63,650 nt of DNA, filler included, from Reclinomonas americana ATCC 50394 (GCA_048213135.1; 16 parts of 16 records of this genome joined end to end with filler, not necessarily neighbours in it), one strand, 5' to 3'. Shown: positions 1 through 63,216, counted from the whole stretch's first letter. A program made the numbers and translations. The notes: generated by a model not told the origin, from the letters alone.

Positions 1-1325
1 GGGTGTGCGCATGTAAAAGTCGGTGGGATGCGAGGCCACAAACTCGGCCACGACCTCGCACGGATTCTTTTCGTACGACACGGCCCTGCACAATGATGAA
101 AGTGAGCTTAGTTGGGGAGCGGCGATGGGGGAAGGGATGGATTTGAGCGCAACGGATCGTCGGCGTGAACCATCGCGGTGCCGATAAAGAACAGCAGCGA
201 GTACAAATCGTTGAGCCACTCCTGAATGAGTAACCTGTCGGCGTCGGTCGCGTGCAAGGCGTCGCACACTTGCGATAGTTCGCCTGTGGGGGAGTGGGAA
301 AGGGAGGAAAGCGGTGATGAGCGATGGGGCAGTCAACTCACCAATCACGGCCTCGACACTGCACAGGAGACACACGTGAGCCACAAAGATGCACGCGACA
401 TCAAAGCAATCGCGCAGGCTCACGCAACACGTCGCCCTTGGCCTTGATCTGTGCTGAATCCTGCAGCGGCACCTCGCTGGTGATGGTAATATGATCGGCC
501 AGCTCAATCACATCGTAGCAGAGACTCAGCGTGAGGTTGGTCACACACGAGGAGCGATAGGTGGACAGCACTGCGCCGCGGAAAAAGTCAGCGCAAGGAA
601 GAGAAAAAAGCAAGAAGGAACACCAAAATTAGCCCGCAACAATGCGCGTCAAAGAACGGGAATGCCTGCGCGCACAGCTGCTTAGCGCAGCGACAAAGGA
701 GATAGGTGCGTTGTTGCTCACCTGCATGACCTTCTTCGTCAGCGCCTCCTGCAACACGGAATCTCCATATGTTTCATCGCCTGCATGCGCATGCAACAAA
801 CTGTGAGAGACAACTCGCAAAACAAACTGATCGCGCGGATTGCGCAGGAACATCGCTGCGCAACGATCAAACTGCCGCGTGGTCCGCTGCACCGCATAAT
901 GCAAGTGCGGCGCAATGAACACAAATCGATCAGACAAGTCCTCTGCGTGATCGTCAGTCACTTGATATGCACATCCAGCATACACGCAGACAGAGTCGAC
1001 GCACTTGCACACTTTTGCACGTGCGACTGCCGCAAGGCCGCGCGCTGCGCCGGAATGCTCTTGACAGGACGCGGTCTGCGTTGAACACCTGCGCTGCTGC
1101 CACTGCTGCCACTGGTCACACCGCCACCACTGTGTCCTGGAGACTTGGCGCGTGTGGGAGAGGCAGAGTGAGGGCGCGCGCGAGGGCGTTGGAAGAGTGG
1201 AGGCTGTGTGATCACACGCGCGCGCGCGTGAAGGAACACAGGCAAAGAGTGTGAGTGCGCGTTGGTGAGCGGGTTCTGTGGAGAGTGAGCGAGCGATAAG
1301 GTACCTCACGATGTGCGTCGGTCAT
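1..1325 (-). CDS. RNase III-domain protein (multi-exon, runs off the left edge)
   Basis: Spliced translation ...SHSLLHAHAGDETYGDSVLQEALTKKVMQ|LCAQAFPFFDAHL|LSTYRSSCVTNLTLSLCYDVIELADHI...KAKGDV|VEAVIG|ELSQVC matches the RNase III layout (ERLEFLGD...FP..EG.LT.LRS.LV.N..L...ADxxEALIG). All four acidic catalytic positions are present (E/D in ETYGD, D/E in DVVE). The start ATG at 1325 is inferred. Confidence 0.75.
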
Positions 1326-1534
1326 TGTGCGCGCGTGCGCGTGGGTGAGTGAGTGTGTGTGTGTGTGTGAGTGGGACAGACAAGGGAATCCGGCGGTTTC
1401 CGGCAACCTGTGACAGATCGTGCGTTGAGTGTGTGAGAGAGAGTGTGTGTGCGTGTTGCTCTCTCTCTCTCTCTCTCTCTCTCTCTCTCTCTGCGTCTGT
1501 GTGAGTGCATTCGTGTGTGCGCGTGTGTGTGAGC

Positions 1535-2873
1535 ATGTGTGAGGAAATCAGTGTGAATCTGTTCAAGACCGATGCCAGTGGTGTGGTGTGCTCCACCATT
1601 GTGCACCACTTGATCAAGCACGTGTTGTATGTGCGGCAGCAGATACCATGGTGAGGAGAGATCAAGCGTGTGCGTGAGAGAGAAGAAAGAAGGGATTGAT
1701 TGTGTTTCGCGCCCATTTGCGCAGTCCGCTGGAGCAAGTGTGGCAGATGACTCTGCAGGTTTGCGCTCTCTGCGTCTGTCTCTGTCTGCTCTCACACTCG
1801 TTGCTCACCGCACTGGGAAGATGTTTCCGCCTGCGCCTTCATCGCTCTCTTCATCGGCGGATGACGAAGACGAGGAGGAAGAACAGGAGAGAAGACCGCA
1901 AGGACCCTCGCTCTCGCTGTTGGAGCGCAAGTGGGTCAAGGTACACTCACTGCACTCACAGCCTCCTCCTCGCCCCTGCTCACTCGATTGCTTGCCAGTT
2001 CGCCGAGTCCAGTCGTCGTATGATGTCGGTGCTTGATCGGAGATTGAGAAGAGTTCCTTCGCTGGTGGCCTTGGTGCTTGGCGCGTCGCCGACCACGCCC
2101 AAGGAGGTGACTCTGGTGCGCTTTCATCACGGGGAGCTGGACGCAGCAGTGGATGAGAGCGATCCAACGCTGCGGAAACACGCGGATGATTGCGGGAGAC
2201 GCGTATTGCGCACAGTGGTGCAGAGTGCGCCGTCGTTTATGCATGCCGGCTTGAGTTTCGCCCGCCTCCACTCTCCCAGCTTGTTTTCATGCGCTGATGT
2301 GAGTGGCACAGGCAAGACCAAGATGCACGTATTGTGGTGCGATGAAGAGGGAGACGACGTCGTCGAGGAAGAAGAAGATGACAGCGTGTTGCCGAGACCA
2401 GAGGGCTTTGAGTTGAAACTGCGCACGGCCAAGGTGCTGGTGGTGCACGTGTTCTTCCGCAACTCGTCGTTGCGTGCTCCACAGCCTCTGCTATTATCAT
2501 CGCCCGCGAGGGTGTCGCTCATGTGGAGAACAACAGCTTCGATCCAACGTACAGCGCCCTGTCGGATCCGAGTGCACGCTCGTCGGCCTTGATGCGCTGC
2601 CTCAAGACGCAGGTTGTGCGACGACAACGCGGCTCGCAAGCATCATCGTCCACCATACACGAGAGAGAAGAGCAAGAGGAGGAGGAAGACGCGGATGCCT
2701 GCTCGTCGACGTTCACTTGGTTCCAATGTCGAAGCACTCTGAGCGGACTCGGCACGCTGCCTCCGCCTCAAGAGAAGCAGCGCGCGCGTCGACTGGTCGG
2801 CAAGATGGGCTTGCGCTTCCGTGCACGAACAGAGTCGGAGAAGGGAGAAAAGGCGATGGAAGACGATGAATGA
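1535..2873 (+). CDS. MAD2L1BP: p31comet / MAD2L1-binding protein (HORMA domain), multi-exon
   Basis: Exons give HHLIKHVLYVRQQIPCPLEQV, VALVLGASPTTPKEV and C-terminal FTWFQCRSTLSG, which match the p31comet motifs ELLKHIMYQRQQLPLPYEQL, LILLG..ALSPKE and YIWFQAP..LKG. One internal splice near 2440-2510 is unresolved. Confidence 0.8.
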
Positions 2874-61282: not shown

Positions 61283-62235
61283 AGCCCTGGCGCGACACAT
61301 GTGTGCGTGTGTTGGAATTGTACCGGTTATCTCGCGCGAGCGGCGATGGGACAGTCTGCTTCGCGCGCGCGCTCTCTCTCTCTCTCTTCGCTCCACCGCC
61401 CGTTTCCCCACTCGCCTGCGTCATTGGTGGGGCATGGATGCGCCGAGTCGCCGAGTCACCGTCGCGGCAAATGCTCGAATTTCGAGTTCGAAGTCATGCG
61501 AGACTCTCTGTTGCCCACGCGTCGGCTTGATGGCCACCACCTCCGTTGCATCGGTGTGCTTGCGGCCCCAAGGATCGCGCCGCTCCGAGCCCCGCGGCTG
61601 GGAGGCAATCGGAATTTCTTTCGTTATTCGATCATGACCCACAATCCGCGGGGACACTCGGCTGTCTGCGCGCATATGACGGTCCACGCAAACCATGTAA
61701 AGTCCAGGAATGCCGGGGTGGCCGGGCATCCGAGACGCAACTCGGGTGTCATGTCATCTCGTTGTTCCTTTTTGCATCATTCTTTTTTGCCCGACCACAA
61801 ACCACTGCCGGAGAATCCAGAACCACTTCCACAGTGGAGAGGTAGCTGCTTGTCTCTGCCACTTGCACACTGCAGCGCCGATCCGCCTGCAGCCTCGGCA
61901 GGTGGTGGGCTGGCAGCGCTTCTCTTTTTTTCCTTGCTGGTTCGAGATATCATCATTATACACTTACACAGCTCATAGTAAGGGGCGCGCCAGCTCGCCT
62001 GGCCTTCGCTCCAACTCTGGGGGGAACGCAATGTCGATGGCCGTGCGATTTCGTTGTGCGCGCCCTCTCTCCTCGTCTTCGTCACTGCTGTCGTCCGAGT
62101 TGAGATCGTCGACGAATCGTGGACCGCTGTCGCCCNNNNNNNNNNNNNNNNNNNNNNNNNNNNNNNNNNNNNNNNNNNNTTAATTAATTAANNNNNNNNN
62201 NNNNNNNNNNNNNNNNNNNNNNNNNNNNNNNNNNN

Positions 62236-63216
62236 TGCGCCTGGTACGAATCCACGTGCTGCTGCGGTGGCATGTACGGTGGTGGCACACGGTATTGGGA
62301 CGGATCGTAGCCGGCACCCGGCTGCGGAGGTGGCGGAGCGGGCGGGTACCCGTGCGGCGGTTGCCCGCCGACCACCAGCACAGCTGCGACAGAGGAGAGA
62401 TGAGAGGTGAGTGGTGCGATGAGAGAAACGAACGGTCGTCATGCTACGAACCACCAGGTCCATAGTTATTCGGCGTCATCTCCAACTCCACCCACGTGAG
62501 ACGGAACTGGACCGGCGGCGCCTTGTGCTGCGGAATCAGGCGCACATCGTGCCTCAGCACCAGCTGCATGCTGCGTGAACACACACAAGCAGAAAGATCG
62601 TATCAGTCACGTGCATCACTTGATGTGAGTGGTAATGCGACAGACCCACGCGGCAGCAACTCGGGATTCTTGCGCCGCAAGTACGCCGACACGGCATGCT
62701 CCAACTAGTTCACGGACGTGAGCACAACACATCGTACATGTAGCGCAAGGAACGAGGCCACGCAACATTGGTGCGCAGCGCCTTCAGGCGCTTGACCTTG
62801 CGCGCATTGTAGCAAATGGCAAAGCACATGCCGGGAATGATGCACAGGAAGAGCAGGCAGCACCAGAACCAGAAGCAGAAGCCGGGCCTGTTTTCAAGCA
62901 AGAGGTAAGCCACACAGATTACACACACGCCTGGCTGGCAACAAAGAATGCACTCAACTTCTCCTGCTCCACTTGCTGCTCGAACGGATGCGAGGCCACG
63001 GCGATGTTGTTGACAATGTCGTCGAACTCTTGTCTCGAGATCTGCGCCTGCATGTGAGACACACACAGGGAGGGAGGGAAGCGCAAGGTAGGGCGTCACC
63101 TGCTGATGCGCCCAGACGGGCAGATCACGCGACCAGCCGCCGTCGGGCAGCGGGTGAATGATCACGCGCTCCGCGGTGCTCGGAGGAAACGAAAGGCTGT
63201 TCACCGGCTGATACAT
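62236..63216 (-). CDS. Cys-rich membrane protein (Golgin A7/Erf4-like?) with Pro/Tyr-rich tail
   Basis: ISRQEFDDIVNNI, CFWFWCCLLFLCIIPGMCFAIC transmembrane segment, tail with GYPPAPPP and PPPY. Boundaries uncertain. Confidence 0.45.

Follow-up and report, generated by a model that had tools for sequence, protein, structure and literature searches.

One-base-offset GTTGCG 5' splice sites in short introns of a Reclinomonas americana genome window

The stretch analysed here (referred to as the window) comprises 63,650 nucleotides (nt) from Reclinomonas americana ATCC 50394 (GCA_048213135.1) and consists of 16 contigs of 1–8 kb joined via 15 linkers of 100 bases (N44-TTAATTAATTAA-N44, e.g., 17365–17464), so that gene order across the linkers is meaningless, several genes being truncated where a contig stops. 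Most contigs have a G+C content of 52–60% and carry eukaryotic genes with many short introns. The subject of this work is the 5' splice sites (donors) of these introns, which occur in an ordinary form, typically GTGCGT, and in a second form with one additional T, typically GTTGCGT, named shifted in the following. An initial annotation had listed 24 GTTGCG sites and three variants (GTTGAGT at 18132, GTTACGT at 27291, and GTTCCGT at 26360) as donors used only where the exon does not end in G. All 27 motifs are indeed present in the sequence at their coordinates, and the last exon base before them is A in 10, C in 9, T in 8, and G in no case. The sample for the donor rule comprised the one window of 63 kb and one locus of 7 kb from a relative (L001). 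Cuts are marked by a slash, with exon bases in lower case.

Introns of the dynein heavy chain gene

On the minus strand, the region 34652–41661 codes for a dynein heavy chain of the axonemal type, of which it covers the tail and the linker (Pfam DHC_N2; tblastn). Since exons are short, a Pfam profile search of 300 long open reading frames (ORFs) of the window led to few matches, and 150 dynein homologues were collected from a representative protein search, the tblastn queries being about 4100 amino acids (aa) long. Nine predicted junctions were then compared with all frame-compatible end pairs within ±18 bases, whatever their dinucleotides, which gave 255–457 alternatives per junction, each scored against up to 15 homologues.

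Among the shifted donors, the predicted junction was the single best one for the intron 38110–38176 (aga/GTTGCGT...TAG/, 67 nt, phase 1) and for the intron 35525–35601 (atc/GTTGCGT...CAG/, 77 nt, phase 1). Their split codons, a/AT for Asn and c/AT for His, are matched by the same residue in 27 of 41 and in 25 of 62 homologues, respectively, which rules out a cut one base later (intron beginning with TT) at both sites; at 38176 the later cut would yield Ser, found in only 1/41 homologues. At the intron 38450–38515 (aca/GTTGCGC, 66 nt) the junction tied for best with alternatives yielding the identical peptide, and for the introns 37785–37861 (gac/GTTGCGT, 77 nt; also called by the blind gene finder described below) and 36014–36092 (gga/GTTGCGT, 79 nt) it was the best GT–AG pair. 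Homology was ambiguous for the intron 37612–37685 (gtc/GTTGCGT, 74 nt), where a rival GT–AG pair lies 3 nt upstream. Concerning the ordinary donors, the junction of the intron 37419–37487 (att/GTGCGT, 69 nt), which follows a T, was the unique best one, its split codon for Phe being present in 11/17 homologues, and that of the intron 35048–35116 (agg/GTGCGT, 69 nt) was tied best. The intron 36787–36859 (ggg/GTGCGT, 73 nt) had the sole GT–AG pair, yet ranked fourth of 457 alternatives. Together with the ordinary intron 34846–34919 (ctg/GTGCGT, 74 nt; found in L001 and by the blind gene finder), this makes ten introns in the validated stretch, six of which belong to the shifted class.

All of these introns start with GT and end with AG, and their removal restores reading frame and homology, as is characteristic of U2-type introns. 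The 25 validated introns of the window (34846–38515) and L001 are tightly constrained in length (61–81 nt) and harbor CT[ACGT]A[CT], a branch-like motif by sequence that marks a predicted branch point, 10–40 nt upstream of a CAG or TAG end. U12-type introns start with RTATCCTT and have a branch resembling TCCTTAAC; neither was seen in any of the 27 listed contexts (0/27), so that this type could be ruled out.

The locus L001 is a metagenome sequence of 6934 bases carrying the same dynein, the two being 95% identical as proteins and 77% identical as DNA over 4.1 kb. In a pairwise alignment, each of the ten introns in 38676–34652 has its counterpart at the same position, those of the six listed dynein sites (35601, 36092, 37685, 37861, 38176, and 38515) included. 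While the exons are 79–87% identical with 0–3 gap columns, the introns reach only 34–51% with 4–19 gap columns; conservation ends exactly at /GT and resumes after AG/, which fixes the intron boundaries independently of any motif.

At five of the six orthologous shifted sites the shifted form is retained in L001, e.g., as c/GTTGCGT at 35601 and as a/GTTGTGT at 38176. The latter carries a +5 C-to-T change and shows that some variation occurs within the box. At 36092, gga/GTTGCGT of the window corresponds to ggg/GTTCGT in L001, shifted with A and ordinary with G, the codon change being synonymous. At 37487, att/GTGCGT of the window is opposed to att/GTTGCGT in L001, where a single T indel switches the class. 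At 37685, gtc/GTTGCGT is matched by gcg/GTTGCGTG; there the donor is shifted although the exon ends in G, which is a clear exception. One of the two class switches between window and relative coincides with a change at –1, and the 37685 orthologue shows a –1 change without a switch. The ordinary donors 36859 and 34919 have their counterparts in L001 as well, and that of 35116 reads g/GTTAGT.

Beyond the part covered by the contig of the window, five further introns of L001 were called with homologues, having the donors g/GTTTGCGT, g/GTCAGC, g/GTGAGC, a/GTTTCGT, and g/GTGAGC. In the first of these (L001 4305–4374, gag/GTTTGCGT), the exon ends in G and the GCGT box lies two bases further downstream than usual; this is the best GT–AG pair by homology. 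In total, G precedes 8/8 non-shifted donors of L001 and 1/7 shifted or shifted-like ones (p = 0.0014), so the relative shows the same split at –1 with one exception. Among 79 further metagenome dynein loci, none showed an excess of GTTGCG, and L001 is alone among the 80 in having such a density; seven of the other loci were inspected and gave 0–4 callable introns each, too few for a comparison.

Donor classes across the window

For the window as a whole we used a gene finder that required GT and AG only, that took its acceptor model and its length prior from the 25 validated introns and had a codon model besides, and that was ignorant of the donor motif and of the –1 base. Earlier versions had been fitted too closely to the codon usage of the dynein gene or had merely reproduced their own donors and were superseded by this blind version, and a crude flank-coding scan for introns was dropped as too noisy. 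In addition, each site was given an intron score that ignores the motif, and was ranked among the 7544 GT dinucleotides of the window (ranks below refer to this null).

The blind gene finder called 49 introns, 45 of them with 50–130 bases. These were divided into a shifted class (GTT[GAT][CA]G[TC]), an ordinary class (GT[GAT][CA]G[TC]), and the rest. None of the 15 shifted donors follows G (A5, C6, T4), compared with 8 of 11 ordinary and 10 of 19 other donors (Fisher test, shifted vs. ordinary p = 1.1e-4, shifted vs. rest p = 5.9e-5). The blind catalogue is imperfect, as a 45-nt "intron" at 36593 is false (the exon aligns through in L001) and the introns at 38515 and 35116, both readable through in frame, were missed. 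With 15 of 45 introns in the shifted class, far above the human share, the view that this is a mainstream mode held up. In the assembled sets, G precedes 0/27 shifted and 15/17 ordinary donors, the 17 ordinary ones having been gathered non-blind from several gene-finder runs with sequences and –1 base visible.

Apart from the dynein gene, the aspartic protease gene provided junctions confirmed by protein domains. The intron 59606–59672 (minus strand, ctc/GTTGCGT, 67 nt) was also called by the blind gene finder and splits DSGSTFL/WVP, a junction proposed from the protein motif and now fixed by continuity of the Pfam Asp profile, which runs to about position 26 in exon 59673–60026 and from 27 in exon 59336–59605. 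The blind gene finder likewise found the intron 58916–58982 (minus strand, ctt/GTTGCGT, 67 nt, DTGTSL/ITGP; top 1.5%), whose flanking exons both match Asp, to profile position 209 and from 230. A third intron of this gene, 59266–59333 (minus strand, caa/GTGCGT, 68 nt), was found blindly with the Asp profile on both sides and has an ordinary donor after A.

Further shifted introns called by the blind gene finder are located on the minus strand at 86–153 (tcc/GTTGCGC, 68 nt; top 0.05%) and 359–428 (cgt/GTTGCGT, 70 nt; top 0.7%), and on the plus strand at 26631–26690 (tga/GTTGCGC, 60 nt; top 2.2%) and 27291–27357 (atc/GTTACGT, 67 nt, the offset version of GTACGT; top 1.5%). Gene-finder calls were also obtained for 47448–47513 (plus strand, gat/GTTGCGTTGCG, 66 nt; top 3.5%) and 49516–49583 (minus strand, aga/GTTGCGT, 68 nt; top 0.7%). 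At least four shifted-class donors were identified beyond the listed ones, all by the blind gene finder on the minus strand, namely 19142–19202 (tct/GTTGCGT, 61 nt) in the RNase P p30 gene, where the upstream exon matches positions 164–195 of the RNase_P_p30 profile, 43902–43967 (gct/GTTGCGT, 66 nt; top 3.7%) in the ORC4-like gene, 44310–44374 (cca/GTTGCGT, 65 nt; top 9%), and the variant 62888–62958 (gaa/GTTGAGT, 71 nt; top 4%). Candidate shifted introns supported by score are 571–640 (minus strand, att/GTTGCGG, 70 nt; top 3.9%; passed over by the gene finder), 17643–17708 (plus strand, cgc/GTTGCGT, 66 nt; top 6.7%) in the PQ-loop (cystinosin-like) gene with a PQ-loop match downstream, 21197–21310 (minus strand, aat/GTTGCGT, 114 nt; top 4.3%), 24452–24519 (plus strand, caa/GTTGCGC, 68 nt; top 2.9%), and 47031–47100 (plus strand, agt/GTTGCGT, 70 nt; top 4.1%) in the Rpp20/Alba gene. 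A candidate exception to the –1 rule is tcg/GTTGCGCG, a 48-nt candidate intron at 41107–41154 (minus strand) near the 5' end of the dynein gene (top 3.6% by score alone).

The initial list was only partly borne out as a list of donors. Of its 27 sites, 18 rank in the top 5% of the motif-blind intron score (binomial p = 1e-17) and three at 5–10%, namely 17643, 62761–62766 (minus strand, borderline, 7% of null), and GTTCCGT at 26360–26366 (plus strand, 6% of null), the last being doubtful as a shifted site because GTCCGT is no ordinary type here. Six are unsupported: on the plus strand 16227–16232 (57% of null), GTTGAGT at 18132–18138 (no frame-compatible acceptor within 45–130 nt), and 21596–21601 (73% of null; purine-rich downstream), and on the minus strand 60670–60675 (50% of null) as well as 39245–39250 (16% of null; outside the homologue-covered part) and 45826–45831 (14% of null), for which some weak support exists. 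By sequence criteria, some two thirds of the listed sites bear out the observation. The restriction to exons not ending in G stands as a strong tendency in the blind set, but "only" is too absolute, since one shifted donor of the relative follows G and ordinary GTGCGT donors follow T (37487) and A (59333).

Counted over both strands of the whole window, GTTGCG occurs 70 times, while 100 dinucleotide-preserving shuffles gave 43.1 ± 6.5 with a maximum of 59, so that 0/100 reached 70. G precedes 6 of the 70 GTTGCG occurrences and none of the 29 of GTTGCGT, compared with 14 of 85 for the control words GTTGCA and GTTGCC. GT repeats inflate raw counts of GTGCGT-like words. In the tandem copies GTTGCGTTGCG at 47448–47458 and 42499–42509 (both plus strand), two shifted-class motifs follow each other at a distance of five bases; as possible alternative donors, they would change the frame.

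Comparison of the two consensuses supports the alignment of /GTTGCG with G/GTGCG put forward initially. The ordinary consensus is G/GTGCGTG (–1G 15/17, +3G 14/17, +4C 14/17, +6T 16/17) and the shifted one H/GTTGCGT (H being A, C, or T), with T19, C7, and G1 at +7 in the 27 sites. When slid by one base, both agree at six of seven positions. While the shifted class is nearly invariant over seven bases, the ordinary class is degenerate, as seen at +3 and +4. Both confirmed ordinary donors after a non-G (37487 and 59333) are perfect GTGCGT, a pattern expected if a lost –1G has to be offset by a full match elsewhere.

Shifted and ordinary introns are alike in length (68.6 vs. 70.3 nt), composition, and internal similarity, with mean local scores of 8.07 for shifted–shifted, 9.25 for ordinary–ordinary, and 8.52 for between-class pairs (shuffled 6.99), which points to the same machinery and no mobile origin. 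An introner-like mobile origin was ruled out, as no internal sequence is shared and L001 kept the positions while the sequences diverged.

Further genes and elements of the window

Apart from the dynein gene, domain matches revealed genes for a dual-specificity phosphatase (10546–11100, plus strand), an ankyrin-repeat protein (13279–15443, plus strand), the PQ-loop/cystinosin-like protein (about 17500–18720, plus strand), RNase P p30 (18771–20237, minus strand), the ORC4-like protein (43200–45152, minus strand), the C-terminal end of a DNA primase large subunit (46267–46692, minus strand), Rpp20/Alba (46850–47576, plus strand), an NmrA-like protein (47981–49014, minus strand), an LRR_9 protein (54407–54954, plus strand), and the pepsin-like aspartic protease (58571–60026, minus strand). 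Long (GT)n/(CT)n runs and G/A-rich low-complexity (GGGAAGG-like) sequences are found in intergenic positions at 16030–16113, 3115–3230, 6169–6480, and 25093–25210.

Three contigs (27744–34551) are A+T-rich (about 30% G+C in 30001–35000). They encode a protein-primed type B DNA polymerase of 1073 aa (30618–33836, plus strand; Pfam DNA_pol_B_2, expectation value (E) 3e-57), for which no relative in the PDB was found by sequence, and adjoining it an rve-type integrase (33851–34549, plus strand), as well as two ORFs (27930–28781 and 28885–29883, both minus strand) with weak phage minor head/tail-like matches. Judging by their content, these contigs seem to be a virus or a Polinton/Maverick-like element, unless they come from another organism.

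A 23-residue exon at 24749–24817 (minus strand) gave a non-significant match to SNRNP27 (E = 0.044, 14.3 bits vs. a cut-off of 23.1), too weak to claim. According to passages of PMC6140464, SNRNP27 is a tri-snRNP protein implicated in the positioning of 5' splice sites in C. elegans.

Possible readings of the two donor forms

From the sequence comparisons we regard the introns, their exact cuts, the offset relation between the classes, the link to the –1 base, and the evolutionary co-variation as established, the offset and the tie to –1 being supported by two species as well as by co-variation. How these sites would be read is a separate matter, for which a U1-based mechanism would be plausible, although a canonical U1 arm lends it no support. 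The interpretation we lean towards, with little more than even confidence, is that these U2-type GT–AG introns (60–80 nt, CTNAY branch, YAG end) use two forms of one 5' splice-site element, the shifted one compensating for a missing –1G, and that this element is read early while the cut is set separately.

The element would be the seven bases G-K-T-G-C-G-T. In the ordinary form, G/GTGCGT, its first G would be the last exon base, while in the shifted form, H/GTTGCGY, the entire element would be intronic, with the +1 G replacing the missing exonic one; the cut would always fall before GT. Donors with a –1G would tolerate many variants (GTGAGT, GTACGC, GTTCGT, and others), while those without it would have to hold a near-perfect element, all seven bases of which can be reached only via the shifted form. 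Early reading would most likely be done by the 5' arm of U1, pairing either with an offset of one base or around a single bulged U, and the cut might then be set independently at GU on transfer to U6/U5/Prp8. That U1 hands the 5' site over to U6/PRP8 in a separate positioning step is described in passages of PMC6140464. The rarity of G before shifted donors could then be a matter of compensation and entropy: with a –1G many sequences would suffice and the shifted heptamer would be rare among them, while without it the heptamer would be nearly the sole full match; cases after G are one in the relative and perhaps 41154.

Several points weigh against this interpretation. Pairing with a human-type U1 5' end (as printed in PMC4856993, an arm that may not be the host's) is predicted to be very weak for shifted sites in all registers, with a mean of –1.25 kcal/mol, and becomes better when the extra T is removed (–2.43 kcal/mol; 22 of 27 improve), ordinary sites reaching –6.15 kcal/mol. 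U1 pairing would therefore explain the shifted class only if the U1 arm of this lineage differs, and as a canonical arm gives no reason for the shifted form, an altered arm or a second U1 would be needed, unless the element is read by U6, U5, Prp8, or a protein. A search for U1 and U6 genes in the window with Rfam gave no matches at the gathering threshold and two weak miRNA-like chance matches at E <= 1. In addition, a plain shift predicts that G is as frequent at the shifted –1 as at the ordinary –2, yet the counts are 0/27 and 5/17 (p = 0.006), and the +7G preference of ordinary donors (10/17) has no counterpart at the shifted +8 (8/27). Finally, the –1 base was visible when the ordinary set of 17 was put together, the blind set amounts to 45 introns, and the junctions rest on homology, the comparison with the relative, and in-window statistics from the one window and the one locus.

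The weak canonical pairing would fit a dedicated second U1, or one altered U1, whose 5' arm is complementary to GUUGCGU, e.g., by a change at position 8 and/or 5–6. The shifted class would then be a perfect target and ordinary donors would rely on pairing of the –1G to C9, which would also suit the near invariance over seven bases, as for a fully paired target, and the +4C of 14/17 ordinary donors, again a poor fit to the canonical arm. Nevertheless, hardly any RNA segment is known to be as conserved as the 5' arm of U1, and a dedicated U1 alone would leave –1 free, so that in view of the 0/27 count at –1 we consider this rather unlikely, if worth keeping in mind. As far as intronic bases go, a shifted register (G+1 on C9) and a bulged U at +2/+3 (G+1 on C8) are equivalent at the sequence level. 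In the bulged case nothing would be shifted, the extra U being looped out with U+2 or U+3 outside the U1 and/or U6 helix; in agreement with this, a single G indel converts GTTCGT into GTTGCGT. Such a register has been validated in human cells, with 68 (+2/+3) and 51 (+3) predicted sites according to table 3 of PMC4856993. A –1G would however contribute one more pair, with C9, and ought to be preferred in this register, yet it is absent from all 27 sites, and the extra base is T in all of these as well as in GTTACGT (27291), GTTGAGT (62958), and GTTTCGT and GTTGTGT of L001, which suggests that it is paired; a bulge as the whole explanation is thus unlikely.

Since the U1 energies give no advantage to the shifted form, the reader might also be U6/U5/Prp8 or a lineage-specific protein, or there might be no reader but a mutation bias (T/G slippage beside GT) tolerated only without a –1G, as single-base indels do interconvert the classes between close relatives. 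Positions +3 to +6 are nearly invariant and five of six sites were kept across two species, which argues for selection on a sequence that is read, and no candidate factor is known, so we regard these options as quite improbable. That the picked GTTGCG sites merely happened to follow a non-G would agree with the six unsupported sites and with the somewhat low count of G before the control words. The split was reproduced by the blind gene finder and in an independent species, and GTTGCGT never follows G in the window (0/29); within the limits of the sample, the blind set, L001, and the –1 counts refute an artefact or chance, to which we assign next to no probability.

In comparison with known systems, the shifted donors are closest to human atypical 5' splice sites that Roca and Krainer reportedly described in 2009 as recognised by U1 pairing shifted by one base. 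Both consist of GU plus one extra base followed by the normal consensus from +3 onward, both lack the –1G, whose place in the helix G+1 takes in humans and would take here, and in both the cut stays at GU. Human shifted-register sites are rare, a few tens among roughly 200,000, while here they make up 15 of 45 introns in the blind set and 6 of 10 in the validated stretch; moreover, the human core is AAGU, while the GCGU found here would pair very weakly with a canonical U1 arm. Bulge and asymmetric-loop U1 registers were reportedly added by Roca et al. in 2012. In eukaryotic 5' splice sites in general, donors without a –1G need a better intronic match, which holds here as well, but the whole element slides by one base instead of +3 to +6 being improved in place.

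Human +2/+3 bulges (68 predicted sites, and 51 for +3; Tan et al. 2016, PMC4856993) have one unpaired nucleotide of the 5' site right after GU, with downstream bases pairing one position late, as the sites described here would in a bulged register; they are rare and, in the parts of that source concerned, a –1G is apparently not avoided, whereas here the form is mainstream with G at –1 in 0/27. In unc-73(e936) of C. elegans, a G-to-U change at intron +1 leads to a cryptic 5' site, with SNRP-27 and PRP-8 positioning the site at the hand-off from U1 to U6, according to passages of PMC6140464. This case shows that cleavage need not keep a constant distance from the bound U1 and that a separate step fixes its position, though as mutant mis-splicing, while the offset described here is the normal and conserved state of many introns. 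A prior report of a GTTGCG/GUUGCG donor class or of noncanonical-register splice sites in protists was not found in full-text searches, although a genome paper describing one may exist. Pairing of U1 in shifted or +2/+3-bulged registers is experimentally established for a small number of human sites (PMC4856993; PMC9311317), and it seems that its routine use, as proposed here, has not been found described.

Going one step further, GKUGCGU might be bound by a U1 or second U1 deviating from the near-universal ACUUACC (predicted at positions 5–6 and/or 8), with the core cutting before the first GU, so that the reading register would be uncoupled from the cut as a routine mode; this we put forward tentatively, as a possible but doubtful extension. 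In practical terms, gene finders with a single donor matrix will misplace many exon ends in such genomes, as our own position-independent runs repeatedly did. The fidelity of the cut site, which U1 marks and U6/U5/Prp8 catalyse, has so far been studied mostly via a few odd human sites and mutants. A one-base offset in a third or more of the introns, selected across species and tied to the last exon base, would be a natural experiment on this hand-off and, if the proposed reading is true, would predict a change in the U1 5' arm. Should the register indeed be uncoupled from the cut, a third or more of all introns would here depend on shifted-register recognition, for the first time in a natural system.

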